Source: a bacterium (GTDB lineage Bacteria > Vulcanimicrobiota > Xenobia > Xenobiales > JADMJV01). Taken from it: 64,000 nt of DNA. Of this stretch, positions 7,196-12,735 are shown in pieces. Below the pieces are notes generated by a model. The model was not told the DNA's origin. It searched no databases and saw nothing but the letters and a program-made list of their open reading frames with translations. The position numbers and the translations under genes were made by a program. Position 1 is the first letter of the stretch; each line of letters opens with the position of its first letter. The DNA is taken from positions 9,019-73,018 of the forward strand of contig JASBRJ010000049.1 of assembly GCA_030149525.1 (NCBI GenBank), read 5' to 3'.

Positions 7196-7835
7196 ATTGA
7201 CCGAGCTTTGCCCTGGCCGGAACTCCAACGGCAACCACATCTCCCGGAAGATCGTCCACCACGACCCCACCCGCCCCCACAACGCTTCCGCTACCAACGC
7301 TCTTTCCGGGAATCACACAGGCGTTGGTTCCTATCATAACCCTCGGGCCCAGTGTCACGTTACCGGTCAGTCGGGCACCGGGACAAAGGAAGCTGAAGTC
7401 GCCCACTCGACAGTCATGACTGATACTGCTGTGGACTCCAAGAATCACATGGGCTCCCACCACCACATTCGTACTCACCGTGACTCTGGGAAAGATCATG
7501 GCTCCAGGACCGATCTGGCAGGCGGGGGAGAAGTGAGCCAGAGGAGACACGGCAGAACCGAAGGTTGCCCCCAACTCCAAGGCTCGGTCCGCTATCCTTT
7601 GGCGAACGGAATTATCACCGATAGCCACGATGAGATCGAACTCACTCAGATGCTCTTCAAGCCAAGAGAAGCCACCCAGCACCTCGTACCCAAGCACCCG
7701 CTCCCCCTTCCGCTCGGAGCGATCGTCTAAGAAGCCCAAAAGACTCGGGCGTCCCTGCTCCTGATGCGCGTGCATTACGATCTCAGCGACTTCCCGAGCA
7801 TGACCACCACTTCCGTAAATAACAATAGGCTTCAT
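7194..7835 (-). CDS. NeuD/PglD-family sugar O/N-acetyltransferase (hexapeptide repeat)
   Basis: MKPIVIYGSGGHAREV, IAIGDNSVR, left-handed beta-helix repeats, GVPAR. Start moved to ATG at 7835. Confidence 0.9.
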   Translation of the reverse strand: MKPIVIYGSGGHAREVAEIVMHAHQEQGRPSLLGFLDDRSERKGERVLGYEVLGGFSWLEEHLSEFDLIVAIGDNSVRQRIADRALELGATFGSAVSPLAHFSPACQIGPGAMIFPRVTVSTNVVVGAHVILGVHSSISHDCRVGDFSFLCPGARLTGNVTLGPRVMIGTNACVIPGKSVGSGSVVGAGGVVVDDLPGDVVAVGVPARAKLGQ

Positions 7836-7927
7836 GCAAAACTCCCGAACATAGGTCTCTATGCTCGGGAGTTTTGTTTCGAGAATTGCACTAACCTGCA
7901 AGTCCTATCTTGGCAGGGAGAAAGATA

Positions 7928-8275
7928 TTACCAGCGTCCGCGATTCATCTTCTTTCGCTGCCCCGGCGGCATTCCGTGAGGGTGGCGAGGGTGATTTCGA
8001 CGCTCCCACTGATAAGGGTCCTGGACATAACGGATTCGATTCTGTTGGGGAACATAGTAATTGATGCTTTGACCGGGCTGCAGGTCTGACCAGGAAACGC
8101 GGAGTCCTCCAAGTTGAAAAGTCGCCTGCTGCTGCGGTACGAGATAGGCTGCTCCCCCTCGTTGAATCAGTACCCCTTCCGGATAAACTCCATAGACGGT
8201 ACCACTCTGATAGGGCTGGGCCCACAGTCCGCCGCTCAAATATAAGAAACATCCTAATGTTAGTAACTTCTTCAT
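7928..8275 (-). CDS. Small secreted protein
   Basis: Sec signal (MKKLLTLGCFLYLSGGLWA), beta-rich core, C-terminal HPRHPHGMPPGQRKK. Confidence 0.7.
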   Translation of the reverse strand: MKKLLTLGCFLYLSGGLWAQPYQSGTVYGVYPEGVLIQRGGAAYLVPQQQATFQLGGLRVSWSDLQPGQSINYYVPQQNRIRYVQDPYQWERRNHPRHPHGMPPGQRKKMNRGRW

Positions 8276-8340
8276 CGGTCAAGTCCTTTCACGACTCCCC
8301 CAGTCTCCATATTGCGGACAGCGAAGGATTCGACCAACCT

Positions 8341-9639
8341 TCAGGAGCTTACAGTAGCCTTATCCTTTTGGGGTAAGACACCGGGTGCCAGAAACCGCTT
8401 ATCCTCTGCCGTTGCTCCCCAGGACTCAACCCAGACAGGAGCGAGTTCACTGAGACAACTTAACAACCCCGCGGCGCCGGCAACCTCACGATAGATTGGG
8501 GTCACGCTCTCTAGCTGATGAGTGAGGTGGGCCTGGTAATCCAGATCCCTGAACCGACCTGGCGCGACCTCCTCTAGCTCTCGATAGCGTTCAGCCACCT
8601 TCCAGCCATCGGAGATCCGATCCAGGTGAGTCACGGCCAGTCCGTCCAATCCACCGCACACCCGCTTGGCGTAGCGCAAGAGGGGCAGATCCAACCAACC
8701 GTTACGAAAACCTTCCTGCCAGGGTCCCCATCGGTTGTGGAGTTCCGGAAGTAGAAGCTGTTTCTGTTCGGTGGGAAAAGGACCGGCCCCATGGCGAGTA
8801 GCGTAACTCCTCACCACACCTAAACGATGAGCCTCACCACCCCATTCGCGCACTAGCTCCAAAGCGTTGTCGAAGGTGCAGGTGGACCAGGTTGTGTAGG
8901 GGTGAAACCCGCGCCACTCATCGAGCAAAACCCCCTGAGCGCCCTCGAAAACAACCGATCCATCAGTGGGACCTTGCAACCCCACGCGACTCGAGACGAT
9001 CTGAGCCTCCATAAGAAACCGCTCAAGAGCCTCCTCGCCTTCCAGGAGCGCCAGTTCTTGAGTCGCCAACGGCTCATTTTCCAGCTCTCTCCTTCGAGCT
9101 CGAAACTCACTGTAGTACCTTTGCTGGATACGACAAAGTTTTCGGAACAAACGTTCCTGGTGAGACAGATCGTCTGCAACGACACCTTCCTCAGGAAACT
9201 CCAAAGAGTGATGCATGGTCTCTCCCACACCTAGTCCACAGGAACCGTGGCGCTCGTCTCCTCTCAGGATCTCCCGCAGACGATTGGCCGCCTGGTGGAA
9301 TGGAGTGCTCACTCTGGCCCGGGGGTCGATGACAACCCTGGACAGCGCATTCTCGACGCCTTTCCCCTCTAGAACCTCAGCCTCCCTTAGCAACCCTCCG
9401 GGATGGAGAACCATGAAGCGCGACAGATAGGTCCTCACTCCTGGAACGAACGTTCCCGCTCCGAACTGACTGAAGATATGCTCTCTGCCGTCCTCGGTGA
9501 CCACCGCGTGGCCCGCCTGGGCGCCGCCGTTGAAGCGAACAACCCAGGCGGCATCGGTTTGCCGCACCAGAGCATCGGTGATGGTACCTTTACCCGAGTC
9601 ACCGAACCCGAGGTCGACTACGATGATAGCCTTTACCAT
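8341..9639 (-). CDS. Adenylosuccinate synthetase paralog (PurA-like, non-canonical)
   Basis: GFGDSGKG, RFNGGAQAGH, FEGAQGVLLD, HPYTTWS, YATRHGAGPFPTE, GWLD. The GxTTGRxR aspartate loop is absent. Confidence 0.85.
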   Translation of the reverse strand: MVKAIIVVDLGFGDSGKGTITDALVRQTDAAWVVRFNGGAQAGHAVVTEDGREHIFSQFGAGTFVPGVRTYLSRFMVLHPGGLLREAEVLEGKGVENALSRVVIDPRARVSTPFHQAANRLREILRGDERHGSCGLGVGETMHHSLEFPEEGVVADDLSHQERLFRKLCRIQQRYYSEFRARRRELENEPLATQELALLEGEEALERFLMEAQIVSSRVGLQGPTDGSVVFEGAQGVLLDEWRGFHPYTTWSTCTFDNALELVREWGGEAHRLGVVRSYATRHGAGPFPTEQKQLLLPELHNRWGPWQEGFRNGWLDLPLLRYAKRVCGGLDGLAVTHLDRISDGWKVAERYRELEEVAPGRFRDLDYQAHLTHQLESVTPIYREVAGAAGLLSCLSELAPVWVESWGATAEDKRFLAPGVLPQKDKATVSS

Positions 9640-10571
9640 GCGGCCACCGGCTCCACTGGAACAGGGCCTGAACCATCCTTGTCGAGAGTAGCGGCAAACG
9701 GGCTGATGGCCCGGACCACACTACCAACCTGTTGTCGAGTGAGACCTTCTTTGCTCATCTTAACAGCCAGCATATCAAGATCAGTTACCAATCCCTCGCA
9801 GAGCGCCACCAGTCCGGCCGCCACATGACAGGTGTCTTGAGGCTGGTCCAGCACCAGAACATGATCCCCTAAATATTGGCGCCACACATTCTCCACTCGT
9901 CGCCGACCCTGGTCGGGTATCAGGAAGAAAGGATGATAGCTGCAGCTCAACTCATCGACGACTTGCTGTAACGGGATATCTCTCTCGATATCCGCGTCGA
10001 TAAGCGATTTTACCACCGACTTGGAGGTGGTCTTAAACGGCGGCTCGTCACCGGTCATAAAGAAGTAGCCTCGTTTGTTACGTCGCTCCATGCTGTCGGT
10101 GATGGTGTGTCGGGCGGCAAAATACATGGCAAGGTCGTAAGACTCTCCGCCGTTTCCTCCGCCTCGACCCTCCAACCAACTCCAGGTCAACCAGCGGTCA
10201 ATATCCTCCGCCGTGGACTCAAATTGCCCTACCTGTAGCGGACCACTGTCACAGAAGGCATCTCCGAAGGCGAGAAACATCACCTGAGGGTCGGTCACAC
10301 CCGAGGCAAGAAGGCCCTGCATGAAGTGGGGCAACTCGGTCTTGGCCAGAAGCTCGGGGATGGTTCCCATGGAGCCGGTAACATCCAGAGCGAAGACAAT
10401 GGGTAAAGAGTTCGGGTGATCCGCGCTGTCCCGGCTCTCTCTGAACTTCACACCATGCGGATTCATCAGGGGATGAACCTTTCGCTGGCGAAAGACCTCT
10501 TCCCGGCTCTTTGTGCTCCTGGTGGAAACAATCTCCTGATGCGCCTTGTAGCTGTAATCTCCGTATCCCAT
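9633..10571 (-). CDS. von Willebrand factor A (MIDAS) domain protein
   Basis: IVFALDVTGSM (DxTxS MIDAS), GGGNGGESY, FMTGDE. ATG at 10571 has a GAGG RBS; 7-bp overlap with the PurA-like start. Confidence 0.85.
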   Translation of the reverse strand: MGYGDYSYKAHQEIVSTRSTKSREEVFRQRKVHPLMNPHGVKFRESRDSADHPNSLPIVFALDVTGSMGTIPELLAKTELPHFMQGLLASGVTDPQVMFLAFGDAFCDSGPLQVGQFESTAEDIDRWLTWSWLEGRGGGNGGESYDLAMYFAARHTITDSMERRNKRGYFFMTGDEPPFKTTSKSVVKSLIDADIERDIPLQQVVDELSCSYHPFFLIPDQGRRRVENVWRQYLGDHVLVLDQPQDTCHVAAGLVALCEGLVTDLDMLAVKMSKEGLTRQQVGSVVRAISPFAATLDKDGSGPVPVEPVAAW

Positions 10572-10600
10572 ATGGGTTTCCTCACTTTCTTGTTCACGCA

Positions 10601-11425
10601 CTAGAGCGCGAACGGTACGAACCGAGGCGGACCAAATTCCGCCCTGGCAACTTTTTTAAGCTCCGACTGCAAATGATGGGGACGATCAAATTGGTAGGCC
10701 GACTCGGCCAGTTCACGGAGCGCCCTGGGAGCGCCGCTCCCCATCAACTCGGTCAGACAGCGACCACTGTCGGCAAGATCCTGGTGCGCTCCCATCACCG
10801 CCTCTCCCCAGCCACAAAAGGCCACTCCGTGGTCTCTCGGGTGAACCAGGAGATGTTCAGGCCGCAGTGCCCGATGGCTGTATCCCAAATCTCTCAAAAC
10901 TGTTATCTGGTCGAGAACCCGGCTCCAAATCCATACCAGCGCTGCAGGGTCAAGGCCGGTGGGTCTGCGCTTGCGAGCATAGGCAAGAGTATGGACAAAC
11001 CCGCTTCTCCATCCCGTTACCAGGACGGCTTTTCCACGCCAGGAGCCGAGCTTGAGCGGCTGGGGAAGCAATCTGTCTAAGTAGGAATTCCGGTGTTGAA
11101 GATGACGCAGGCTCGACCACTCAGACTCCAGTCGCTCGACATCCTCTGCCACCTTGAGAACGACTTGCCGGGTGGCCGCACAGGCTGTTCGCGCCAGCAG
11201 CACTTCAGAATGCCCACCAACAGCGATTCTGCCCCGAACTCGATAGCGCGCCGAACCCAACTCCACTTCAAAAAGTCCGGCTGGAACAAGCTCAGGCCGC
11301 GGCTCAGGAATTCGATATCCAAGGTCTACTGCAGGTTTATATTCGGTATCGCAATACAGACACAGATAGCCCGAAAGGGGGGCTCCGCAGTTGGAACAGG
11401 TCTTGGACAAAACATTTATGCTCAT
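10601..11425 (-). CDS. Zn-ribbon + protein kinase-like (probable pseudokinase)
   Basis: CSNCG...CLYCD zinc ribbon, IAVGGHSEV Gly-loop remnant, VVLK lysine, HRALRPEH in place of HRD, FCGW in place of DFG. Start is ATG 11425 or TTG 11410. Confidence 0.75.
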   Translation of the reverse strand: MSINVLSKTCSNCGAPLSGYLCLYCDTEYKPAVDLGYRIPEPRPELVPAGLFEVELGSARYRVRGRIAVGGHSEVLLARTACAATRQVVLKVAEDVERLESEWSSLRHLQHRNSYLDRLLPQPLKLGSWRGKAVLVTGWRSGFVHTLAYARKRRPTGLDPAALVWIWSRVLDQITVLRDLGYSHRALRPEHLLVHPRDHGVAFCGWGEAVMGAHQDLADSGRCLTELMGSGAPRALRELAESAYQFDRPHHLQSELKKVARAEFGPPRFVPFAL

Positions 11426-11434
11426 AATGAGCAT
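11418..11434. promoter_or_regulatory. Perfect 8-1-8 palindrome, candidate operator in a divergent region
   Basis: ATGCTCAT-A-ATGAGCAT lies at the 5' end of the kinase/vWA/PurA operon, about 100 bp upstream of the divergent HK/RR operon. Confidence 0.5.
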
Positions 11435-11535
11435 TATGCACAATTCGCCAAGACTTGTCAATTCTTCTCAAAAAGAGCATAAATATCTTAAAAGACGGCT
11501 CAAGGGACCCAATACTCTCCTCCGAATCCTTGGGT

Positions 11536-12735
11536 ATGAACTCCCGGAGAGCAAAAAATTGGCGAGAGCAACTCCGGGCGACGTTAGTCCAGGAGCCCTC
11601 GCTCATCAGTCTGACGTTGCGTTGGTTCGGTTGGTTCGTGGCTCTAGCTATCTACTTCCTCAACGCCGCGCCGACGGTGAACCTTGAAAACACCCCACCC
11701 GTCCTGGTCGTGACGTCCATCCATCTCTTTCTCATGAGCCTGTACCCGCGCCACATTAGAGGCCGACTCTCAAAGAAGCTCTCTCAGAAGGTCCCCGCCC
11801 TTTGGCCCGCCCTCGATGGAGTCATCGCCATCTGGTCTATCTACCAGACAGGAGGTTGGGACAGTCCTTTCTATCACTACGGAGTGACCGTAGTGCTCGC
11901 CCCTTCCCTTCAGTTCGGGCTTCTAGGCGCTCTTCTGTCCTCCACGGCCTTCTCCATAGCTTTCATGATCGTAGTGAAAATGACCGAGCAAGGCTTCAGT
12001 CCCGCCTACGCGGGCAACCAGGCTGAGCCGGATCTGGTAAGCAGCCCTCTCAACCCACTCATGATAGCCCTCTACGCCGCCTTCCTGGGAGAGGTTCTCA
12101 AGAAACTTCGCCGAGAGATGGAACGCTCAAAAATTCTTGCTGCTGAAAACGAGCGAGCCAGAATGGCAGCCGACATCCACGACGGCGTCTCTCAAACACT
12201 CTTCATGCTCAGCATGTCGTTGGAGACGGGCAAAGTTCTGGCTCAAAAAGAAAAGGCCGACAAAACCGCGGTTCACCTGGAGAAATTGGTCCCGGTAGCT
12301 CAGAAGGCTCTAGTGGAGCTGCGCAACGCCATGTATAGCGTGGAGCCCTTGGCCGAGGGAAAACAGACTTTAGCCGAAGCGGTGACTCAGCTGGCCCGCG
12401 ACTATCGATCGGCCACGGGTAAAGACGTTGAATGCTGCTCAGAAGACGGTTTTAGCTGCTCGACGCAACTCTCATCCGAGCTCTTCAGAATGACCCAGGA
12501 GGCTCTCTCCAATGCCTGTCAGCATAGCGGCGGAGACAAGATCAAAGTGTTGCTCTCGAACCGTTCCATCCAGGTTGTCGACAACGGCAAAGGGTTCGAC
12601 CGGGCCTCCATCAAGCCAGGTCGGGGGCTGGGGAACCTCGAAAAGCGTGCCCACGAGCGAGGAATTGCGCTGGAGCTTTCAAGCGGCGACGAGGGCACAA
12701 CCGTGACCTTCACATGGAATGAGGACGAACCGTGA
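11536..12735 (+). CDS. Membrane sensor histidine kinase (HisKA_3, NarX/LiaS type)
   Basis: Several TM helices, ERARMAADIHDGVSQ H-box, QEALSNACQHS N-box, DNGKGFD, GRGLGNL. Likely start ATG 11536. Confidence 0.92.
   Translation: MNSRRAKNWREQLRATLVQEPSLISLTLRWFGWFVALAIYFLNAAPTVNLENTPPVLVVTSIHLFLMSLYPRHIRGRLSKKLSQKVPALWPALDGVIAIWSIYQTGGWDSPFYHYGVTVVLAPSLQFGLLGALLSSTAFSIAFMIVVKMTEQGFSPAYAGNQAEPDLVSSPLNPLMIALYAAFLGEVLKKLRREMERSKILAAENERARMAADIHDGVSQTLFMLSMSLETGKVLAQKEKADKTAVHLEKLVPVAQKALVELRNAMYSVEPLAEGKQTLAEAVTQLARDYRSATGKDVECCSEDGFSCSTQLSSELFRMTQEALSNACQHSGGDKIKVLLSNRSIQVVDNGKGFDRASIKPGRGLGNLEKRAHERGIALELSSGDEGTTVTFTWNEDEP

Follow-up and report, generated by a model that had tools for sequence, protein, structure and literature searches.

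What could a relative of the purine enzyme PurA be doing in one operon with a kinase-fold protein and a von Willebrand factor A (vWA) protein? The question is raised by a locus in a 64,000-nucleotide stretch of a Vulcanimicrobiota genome (GenBank assembly GCA_030149525.1, contig JASBRJ010000049.1, positions 9,019 to 73,018), referred to below as the window. According to the listing of open reading frames (ORFs), three genes lie in one orientation on the minus strand of the window, in the order pseudokinase, vWA protein and PurA-like enzyme, with a gap of 29 nt between the pseudokinase stop and the vWA start, and with 7 nt (ATGGTAA) shared by the vWA stop and the PurA-like start. An earlier reading of the same letters, called here the original prediction, had reported these tightly linked genes correctly in every detail that could be checked. 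The interpretation preferred here, to which a probability of roughly 55% is given, is that the locus is a horizontally mobile cassette, with a PurA-family GTP-dependent ligase and its dedicated vWA protein as the core and an exchangeable third gene, and that this cassette does not serve AMP biosynthesis.

A PurA-family enzyme with a replaced aspartate pocket

The PurA-like gene (8341..9639, minus strand) encodes a predicted GTP-dependent ligase of 432 amino acids. The protein matches PF00709 with 209.7 bits (cut-off 27) over residues 6-388, and 25 PurA sequences of the PDB match it with E-values down to 5.9e-35. It is a full-length protein of the same fold as PurA (EC 6.3.4.4; PF00709; 1ADE/1GIM), 27-31% identical to the E. 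coli enzyme, and public records label its relatives adenylosuccinate synthase. However, it falls under the cut-off of every NCBIfam PurA equivalog model (NF002223, 167.4 vs 402 bits; TIGR00184, 143.8 vs 395.55; NF010355, 127.5 vs 445). A tblastn search of the 64-kb window with E. coli PurA revealed no second purA, the PurA-like gene being the only match.

The active site was assessed by aligning E. coli PurA to the window protein and 119 relatives (120 in all), and to three phage copies; positions are given in E. coli PurA numbering. The P-loop GFGDSGKG is retained (9586..9609, minus strand; D14 and K17 of the window protein correspond to E. coli D13 and K16), with D13 and K16 present in 117 of 117 aligned relatives and H41 in 120 of 120. 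Essentially invariant in the family are G12, D13, G15, K16, G17, G40, H41, Q224, T239, R272, N295, D333, S414 and G416, so that PurA shares with it the GDxGKG P-loop, D13, K16, G40/H41, Q224, T239, D333 and S414/G416. The roles of these residues are presumably those known from the crystallography of E. coli adenylosuccinate synthetase, in which D13 would be the base, H41 the acid and D333, S414 and G416 the guanine contacts; the assignment of the aspartate and IMP sites was taken from the same work. Judged by these residues, the machinery for GTP/Mg binding and for O6-phosphorylation of a 6-oxopurine is intact.

The aspartate loop, in contrast, is changed with respect to PurA. The E. coli sequence F-G-A-T300-T301-G-R303-R-R305-R-T-G-W-L-D is replaced by W304-G-P-W307-Q308-E-G-F311-R-N-G-W-L-D317 (window protein numbering; 8689..8730, minus strand), and the changes are uniform: T300W, T301Q and the deletion of R303 were each found in 120 of the 120 sequences and R305F in 117. 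Other positions have also changed uniformly, namely D231W, S240W (119), V273H (120) and K331H (113). Among the IMP 5′-phosphate ligands N38, T129, R143′ and T239, only T239 is kept; N38Q occurs in 120/120 and T129C in 117/120, R143 has become Glu or Asp (E, D, G or A among the relatives), and R131 is replaced by Leu, Val or Ile. As read from the alignment, the place of the L-aspartate pocket is taken by an aromatic one that bears no charge and does not vary within the family (W300, Q301, deleted R303, F305, H273, W240 and W231). The loss of the aspartate loop together with the remodelled IMP-phosphate site argues that the enzyme does not serve AMP biosynthesis, and the invariance of the new pocket residues suggests a new, specific substrate rather than decay. 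The protein is probably a GTP-driven purine-C6 ligase that works with a non-acidic amine. A natural strain variant of the gene, with 10 synonymous and 5 non-synonymous changes, agrees with purifying selection. The original prediction had placed this PurA paralog outside normal purine synthesis, which these scores and the replaced loop bear out, and the modified-nucleotide product that it had suggested is plausible.

Another branch of the family is PurZ, from the phage 2-aminoadenine (dZ) pathway, which is likewise a phage-borne PurA-family enzyme with an altered substrate. Indeed, PHROGs files PurZ and the PurA-like protein under the same family, phrog_1211 ('2-aminooxy adenylosuccinate synthetase'), which the window protein matches end to end with 252 bits; all three window proteins match PHROGs families (phrog_1211, phrog_2971, listed with function unknown, and phrog_3043). 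PurZ still uses aspartate, for which the family described here no longer has a pocket, and PurZ has no vWA partner. Membership in PurZ was rejected, the model NF038379 giving 47.2 bits against a cut-off of 300, and no datZ/mazZ-type genes were seen near the cassette.

Conservation in bacteria and on plasmids

The distribution of the cassette was surveyed in one genome per GTDB species by means of two vWA peptide patterns derived from a 12-sequence alignment, which gave at least 599 matches and at least 569 confirmed relatives. The best 78 of these confirmed relatives were searched by tblastn with the three window proteins, and the counts for bacterial loci below refer to them. In 66 of the 78 loci the search recovered the complete trio, and with few exceptions the pseudokinase, vWA and PurA-like genes followed one another in this order. 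Of the 12 incomplete loci, eight are truncated by a contig end; in the other four (L021, L028, L032 and L068), the sequence is present and a pseudokinase and a vWA gene are found, with no PurA-like gene within 5 kb downstream, so that either the enzyme is encoded elsewhere or these are two-gene variants. The hosts span at least six phyla, including Vulcanimicrobiota/Eremiobacterota, Myxococcota, Burkholderiales (Duganella, Pseudoduganella, Variovorax), Verrucomicrobiota (Prosthecobacter), Planctomycetota, Chloroflexota and others. Between phyla, the vWA protein is typically about 55% identical to its counterpart in the window, as against 49% for the PurA-like enzyme and 32% for the pseudokinase.

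An all-against-all clustering of the flanking ORFs of the 78 loci revealed no fourth conserved gene: no cluster was present in more than 10 loci, and the largest ones represented within-genus synteny or generic ABC ATPases. Moreover, the flanks of six genomes, read gene by gene, were ordinary and mutually unrelated, and Variovorax, Myxococcus and unrelated contigs showed the same gene order with different flanks. Therefore, the cassette behaves as a self-contained mobile module. It was also found on megaplasmids of Variovorax, Rhodococcus, Tsukamurella and Agrobacterium vitis, with a NUDIX gene beside it on the Rhodococcus and A. vitis plasmids.

Some single loci deserve mention. On the A. vitis plasmid (L090, 8367-12765), the cassette is followed by genes for an AAA ATPase, DUF5682 and DUF4132, which form a MoxR-like set, and the NUDIX gene lies divergently upstream. 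In a 2.7-Mb deltaproteobacterial contig (L003, 1674-3613), a split PrkA (AAA_PrkA and PrkA) and ExbD are encoded directly upstream, a single case that may be a coincidence; PrkA/YeaG normally partners the vWA-like YeaH. In a Tetrasphaera metagenome-assembled genome (MAG; L004, 5242-8195), only a 228-aa C-terminal part of the vWA protein was called, no pseudokinase was seen, and the PurA-like gene is overlapped at its end by a gene of the metallo-beta-lactamase fold; the cassette of this actinobacterium may be degraded or a variant.

The core pair in phages and viral contigs

A tblastn search located the vWA protein in 219 phage records and its PurA-like partner in 239. Counted by host group, both genes occur in 201 phages of Mycobacterium (Bxz1-type, cluster C1), 10 of Rhizobium and 6 of Vibrio, about 217 records in all; the core pair is present in every listed Bxz1-type mycobacteriophage. 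For example, mycobacteriophage Catera encodes a 'kinase' (gp249), the vWA protein (gp250), gp251 and the PurA-like protein (gp252). Vibrio phage Va1 and Rhizobium phage RHph_Y65 carry the vWA and PurA-like genes and no kinase-like gene, and the pair of Va1 lies among nucleotide-metabolism genes.

Similarly, 468 IMG/VR contigs encode a relative, and in 74 of the 80 of them whose loci were analysed the PurA-like gene lies at most 2.6 kb downstream of the vWA gene. The gene 5′ of the vWA gene is kinase-like in 28 of these 80 viral loci, 19 of them with an N-terminal HPD motif resembling a J-domain, which Catera gp249 shares. In 21 other loci it encodes a protein of about 237 aa, known from Va1 and RHph_Y65 as well, whose C-terminal half is very rich in Met; this Met-rich protein (L008, 4198-4911; L009, 3777-4568) belongs to no Pfam family. 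The kinase-like and the Met-rich gene never occur together in the 80 loci. Since the gene upstream of the vWA gene varies while the pair stays, the vWA and PurA-like genes are the invariant core, and the third gene is an exchangeable accessory. About 25 viral loci have genes between the two core genes; these show no recognisable nucleotide-metabolism signature, as seen without a scan against family libraries. Genes for Nampt were found within 8 kb in 14 of the 80 loci and for NMNAT-NUDIX in 10, and the same NAD-salvage genes lie near the pair in RHph_Y65.

The recurrence of the trio in bacterial genomes and of the pair in viral contigs is far beyond chance. The single functional module proposed by the original prediction is supported by this conserved order, and the co-conservation by which it had asked to be judged was clearly found.

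The vWA/MIDAS partner

The vWA gene (9633..10571, minus strand; protein P0121) is preceded by a Shine-Dalgarno sequence, GAGGAA, 6 nt upstream, and encodes a cytoplasmic protein of 312 aa that begins with MGYGDYSY. No Pfam vWA model matched it at E <0.1, and sequence searches of Pfam, NCBIfam and the PDB were uninformative; the protein was identified only by its structure model. An AlphaFold2 (AF2) model built on 64 homologs reached a predicted local distance difference test score (pLDDT) of 93.7 and a predicted template modelling score (pTM) of 0.91, and its top 50 PDB matches were vWA domains, such as those of integrin beta-I, vWF A1/A3, NorD and TFIIH p44. The metal ion-dependent adhesion site (MIDAS) is predicted from the sequence as D63-V-T65-G-S67 (10371..10385, minus strand), with D175 further on. 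In this site, the middle Ser of the DxSxS motif is a Thr (T65). None of the 64 diverse homologs departs from D63, S67 or D175, and at least 90% of them have T65. The assignment as a MIDAS vWA protein made by the original prediction therefore agrees with both the modelled fold and the conserved residues.

The N-terminal tail MGYGDYS (10551..10571, minus strand) forms a coil in the AF2 model and corresponds to a family motif, M-G-[GYS]-[GS]-x-[YWF]-[SDN]. Representative vWA homologs numbered 1672, and among 150 representatives at 50% clustering the N-terminus is MG in 129, the others being N-terminal fragments or having MA or MS starts. The initiator Met can be removed when position 2 is Gly, Ala or Ser. 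The annotated start of Catera gp250 (L007, 4965-6020; V-P-N-S-K...) lies 12 codons upstream of a conserved MGSGAWDS, and the internal ATG at this motif is probably its true start. A second vWA paralog was found in 21 of the 78 bacterial loci, apparently all of Myxococcota (L025, L027, L029, L035, L037, L039, L041, L044-L046, L052, L058, L061, L067, L068, L070, L074, L075 and L080-L082), the two copies lying in tandem between the pseudokinase and PurA-like genes or flanking the PurA-like gene. Both paralogs of L068 retain an MGYGSYSY N-terminus.

The Zn-ribbon pseudokinase

The first gene of the cassette (10601..11434, minus strand; protein P0241) encodes 277 aa from ATG 11434. The longest ORF spans 10601-11461, with alternative starts at TTG 11461 and at ATG 11425; gene callers and homologs favour ATG 11434, and the original prediction had used ATG 11425. 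A sigma-70-like promoter sequence (TTGACA-17 nt-CATAAT, 11433..11461, minus strand), recognised solely by its match to 11 of 12 consensus positions, covers this region. Since its -10 box would lie 7 nt before ATG 11425, the pseudokinase mRNA may be leaderless from that codon, in which case the called starts 11434 and 11461 would be too long.

The protein combines a Zn-ribbon with a kinase fold. The Zn-ribbon, C13-x2-C16 ... C25-x2-C28 (11351..11398, minus strand), matches Pfam DZR with an E-value of 0.0064, and each Cys is kept in at least 90% of 50 homologs. The AF2 model has a protein-kinase fold (pLDDT 88.9) and at least 1981 matches to kinase chains of the PDB at E <=0.001, the top one being PknG (E 1.1e-9). 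The degenerate catalytic loop and DFG region (residues 187-209; 10808..10876, minus strand) were located by aligning the motifs with those of homologs: H187-R-A189-L-R-P-E-H194 aligns to HRDLKPEN of CaMKI, and F-C-G208-W209 stands at the DFG position. The HRD Asp is thus an Ala here, the catalytic Asn a His and the DFG Asp a Gly, and these replacements are family-wide in bacteria. The phage protein Catera gp249 retains the Asn and a D-W and likewise misses the HRD Asp. At least 90% of the 50 homologs retain K94 (the VAIK Lys) and E105 (the alpha-C Glu). As these two residues are kept and the catalytic Asp, the Asn and the DFG Asp are gone, the protein is probably a nucleotide-binding, non-catalytic scaffold or regulator. 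The Zn-ribbon kinase-fold protein devoid of catalytic residues that the original prediction described is recovered in fold, motifs and cysteines.

The closest comparison is PknG of Mycobacterium tuberculosis, which shares the arrangement of an N-terminal Cys4 Zn module (rubredoxin-like in PknG) followed by a kinase domain. However, PknG is an active Ser/Thr kinase with a TPR tail, whereas the window protein lacks the HRD Asp, the catalytic Asn, the DFG Asp and the TPR. Moreover, the replacement of the pseudokinase by a J-domain kinase-like protein or a Met-rich protein in phages points to chaperone or adaptor work of the third protein rather than to phosphorylation.

Proposed mechanism

In the mechanism envisaged for the cassette, the PurA-like enzyme would use GTP to form a 6-phosphoryl-purine intermediate from a 6-oxopurine nucleotide, and an amine without carboxylates would then displace the phosphate, giving an N6-substituted adenine-type nucleotide. 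The vWA protein would be either the substrate of the enzyme or an adaptor that presents the substrate, because it is always encoded adjacent to the enzyme, is more conserved than it (~55% vs 49%), is sometimes duplicated, and has a near-invariant Met-Gly start and an intact MIDAS. The favoured amine donor is the alpha-amine of vWA Gly2 or a client held on the MIDAS, a suggestion that is tentative and, taken by itself, unlikely. The flexible tail with Gly, Ala or Ser at position 2 after Met removal, combined with the loss of both carboxylate-binding arginines, is what makes the vWA N-terminus a candidate nucleophile. A small free amine or ammonia as the donor is possible, if short of likely, and is at least as likely as the mechanism through the vWA N-terminal glycine.

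In its most specific and rather speculative form, which was considered improbable, the mechanism would be a protein purinylation, in which the enzyme would join a C6-activated 6-oxopurine nucleotide to the amine of the vWA N-terminal glycine in place of aspartate. The product, made after Met removal, would be a protein-N6-adenylate-type conjugate, and this purine tag would act as an on/off switch for the vWA/MIDAS adaptor. The link from the adaptor to chaperones or clients would be provided by the exchangeable third protein, be it a Zn-ribbon pseudokinase, a J-domain pseudokinase or the Met-rich protein, and in those lineages that encode NUDIX enzymes nearby, these could shorten or remove the tag. 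The function may be an accessory one, useful to large phages and free-living bacteria and tied to the adenine-nucleotide or NAD economy, a link hinted at by the Nampt, NMNAT-NUDIX and NUDIX neighbours.

Several points weigh against the interpretation of the cassette as a GTP-dependent ligase with a dedicated vWA partner. The substrate identities are derived solely from PurA residues kept or lost, and, given the altered IMP-phosphate ligands, the acceptor could turn out not to be a nucleoside 5′-monophosphate at all. Judging by the four bacterial loci with no PurA-like gene within 5 kb, the vWA protein may also function where the enzyme is not encoded close by. Flank clustering revealed no NAD genes near the 78 bacterial loci, and among the viral loci such genes are close to only the 10-14 of 80 mentioned above. 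Finally, three metatranscriptomes of samples that hold the DNA gave zero contigs or reads on the stretch, a result that is uninformative rather than negative.

Alternative explanations

Part of the evidence could be accounted for by an enzyme of the nucleotide pool or NAD economy that makes a free metabolite, for instance by aspartate-independent re-amination of IMP or inosine nucleotides or by producing an N6-modified adenylate that would serve together with NAD salvage; the role of the vWA protein would then be limited to activation, and the bacterial cassette a domesticated copy. The retained machinery for purine O6 activation, the Nampt and NMNAT-NUDIX genes close to viral loci and in RHph_Y65, the NUDIX genes flanking the cassette on Rhodococcus and A. 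vitis plasmids, and the nucleotide-metabolism surroundings of the Va1 pair would all be consistent with such an enzyme. Yet this explanation, which is regarded as unlikely, leaves the higher conservation of the vWA protein, its duplication in 21 of 78 loci and its N-terminal glycine tail unexplained; moreover, no glutaminase or ammonia-delivering partner is found, the bacterial loci have no NAD genes nearby, and the ligands of the IMP 5′-phosphate are altered. A different possibility is that the PurA-like protein performs no ligation and is a SIMIBI-class GTPase switch that, together with the vWA protein, assembles or metallates a client in the manner of MoxR-vWA or G3E systems. PurA is classified among the SIMIBI P-loop GTPases, vWA/MIDAS proteins are often adaptors for NTPase chaperones (NorD, of the NorD-NorQ pair, is among the fold matches), and both substrate pockets are altered. 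A pure switch is nevertheless very improbable, since residues needed only for purine chemistry (the D13 base, H41, Q224 and T239) are invariant, and so are the replacement residues W300, Q301 and H273 (120/120), which indicates a specific new substrate site. The pairs NorQ-NorD and CbbQ-CbbO, consisting of a MoxR-type ATPase and a vWA protein, do resemble the cassette in that a vWA/MIDAS protein is dedicated to an adjacent P-loop NTPase. They differ from it in that the NTPase of the cassette is a PurA-family GTP-dependent ligase instead of an AAA+ protein, and no client enzyme is encoded alongside.

The original prediction had put forward a role in conflict or anti-phage defence. In a system of defence or abortive infection, the pseudokinase would sense infection, the vWA protein would relay the signal and the PurA-like enzyme would make a toxic or signalling nucleotide. 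Patchy spread across phyla, variable flanks and plasmid carriage fit mobile accessory systems of this sort, the kinase-like protein is the fastest-evolving of the three (~32% identity vs 55% for the vWA protein) and weakly resembles the kinase domains of PglW and PD-T4-6, PIN, NADase-like and caspase-like genes lie close to the cassette in a single Myxococcus locus, and the pairing of a vWA protein with a kinase is the theme of the TerY-P defence triad. However, neither the vWA nor the PurA-like protein has a PADLOC match, and the scores for PglW (23.7 bits, cut-off 990) and PD-T4-6 (22.7 bits) reflect the generic kinase core only; on these grounds, membership in BREX PglW or PD-T4-6 was rejected. 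The TerY-P triad, or Gao_TerY, reportedly consists of a TerY vWA protein, a Ser/Thr kinase and a PP2C phosphatase. It is similar in joining a cytoplasmic vWA/MIDAS protein to a kinase-fold protein in a three-gene mobile module, and different in that here the kinase is dead, the third member is a PurA-like ligase and there is no PP2C; the absence of a PADLOC TerY match for the vWA protein and of a PP2C or fourth conserved gene in the 78 loci, together with the dead kinase, led to its rejection. The proximity to defence islands that the original prediction had proposed to check was not seen either, as none of the nine neighbours in the window has a PADLOC match and the flanks in five other genomes are mostly housekeeping. 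The similarity of the vWA protein across phyla, moreover, is unlike that of a fast-evolving immune sensor, the core pair being strongly conserved, and its carriage by hundreds of large lytic phages suggests a benefit to the virus, all of which renders a defence role improbable. Still less can be said for an ordinary, divergent housekeeping purA that happens to lie beside two unrelated genes. The strong PF00709 match, the annotation of the relatives and the lack of another purA in the window would be expected of it, whereas the scores below every equivalog cut-off, the deletion of R303 and the replacement of T300, T301 and R305 throughout the relatives, the fixed association with the vWA gene in different phyla and in phages, and the copies on plasmids and in phages whose hosts have a purA of their own, as is generally known, bring this explanation close to refutation. 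Set against PurA as a whole, the family thus differs in its aspartate loop, in N38Q, T129C, the hydrophobic residue at 131, the acidic residue at 143, V273H and K331H, as well as in being always encoded with a vWA partner and borne by phages and plasmids.

Surroundings of the cassette in the window

The nine neighbours in the window encode a universal stress protein (USP), an alpha/beta hydrolase, a PglD-like acetyltransferase, a histidine kinase with a LuxR-type regulator, a GT2 glycosyltransferase, YdjC and two unknown proteins. Just 3′ of the PurA-like gene, an ORF of 115 aa (7928-8275, minus strand) has a hydrophobic, signal-peptide-like start (MKKLLTLGCFLYLSGGLWA); it has no Pfam or PADLOC match and is not conserved beside the cassette elsewhere. 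In the marine metagenome run X7, all differences from the window lie left of about 9308, with 15 in the PurA-like gene and 19 in 7800-8300, and positions 9309-12000 are identical; this pattern looks like a recombination or strain-mosaic boundary within the cassette.

Novelty and significance

Full-text searches found no description of the cassette, its chemistry or its role in the literature. The mentions that were found are genome announcements calling the phage gene a 'PurA-like adenylosuccinate synthetase', in addition to a PHROGs-derived label, and the cassette appears to be undescribed as a system. It is widespread, occurring in at least 569 species-representative genomes, in 468 IMG/VR contigs and in every listed Bxz1-type mycobacteriophage; therefore, thousands of genes annotated as 'adenylosuccinate synthase' are probably misnamed, which distorts the reconstruction of purine pathways in MAGs. 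If the chemistry read from the active site is correct, the adenylosuccinate-synthetase family would have, besides PurA and PurZ, a third functional branch with an undescribed chemistry, always acting together with a dedicated vWA protein. If, in addition, the product were a protein-nucleotide conjugate, it would constitute a new kind of post-translational modification, one that might be put to use for labelling proteins site-specifically at the N-terminus. The retention of the cassette both by large lytic phages and by bacteria of many phyla indicates that it probably touches a very conserved process, for which adenine-nucleotide or NAD supply, or a chaperone-linked step, are the candidates.

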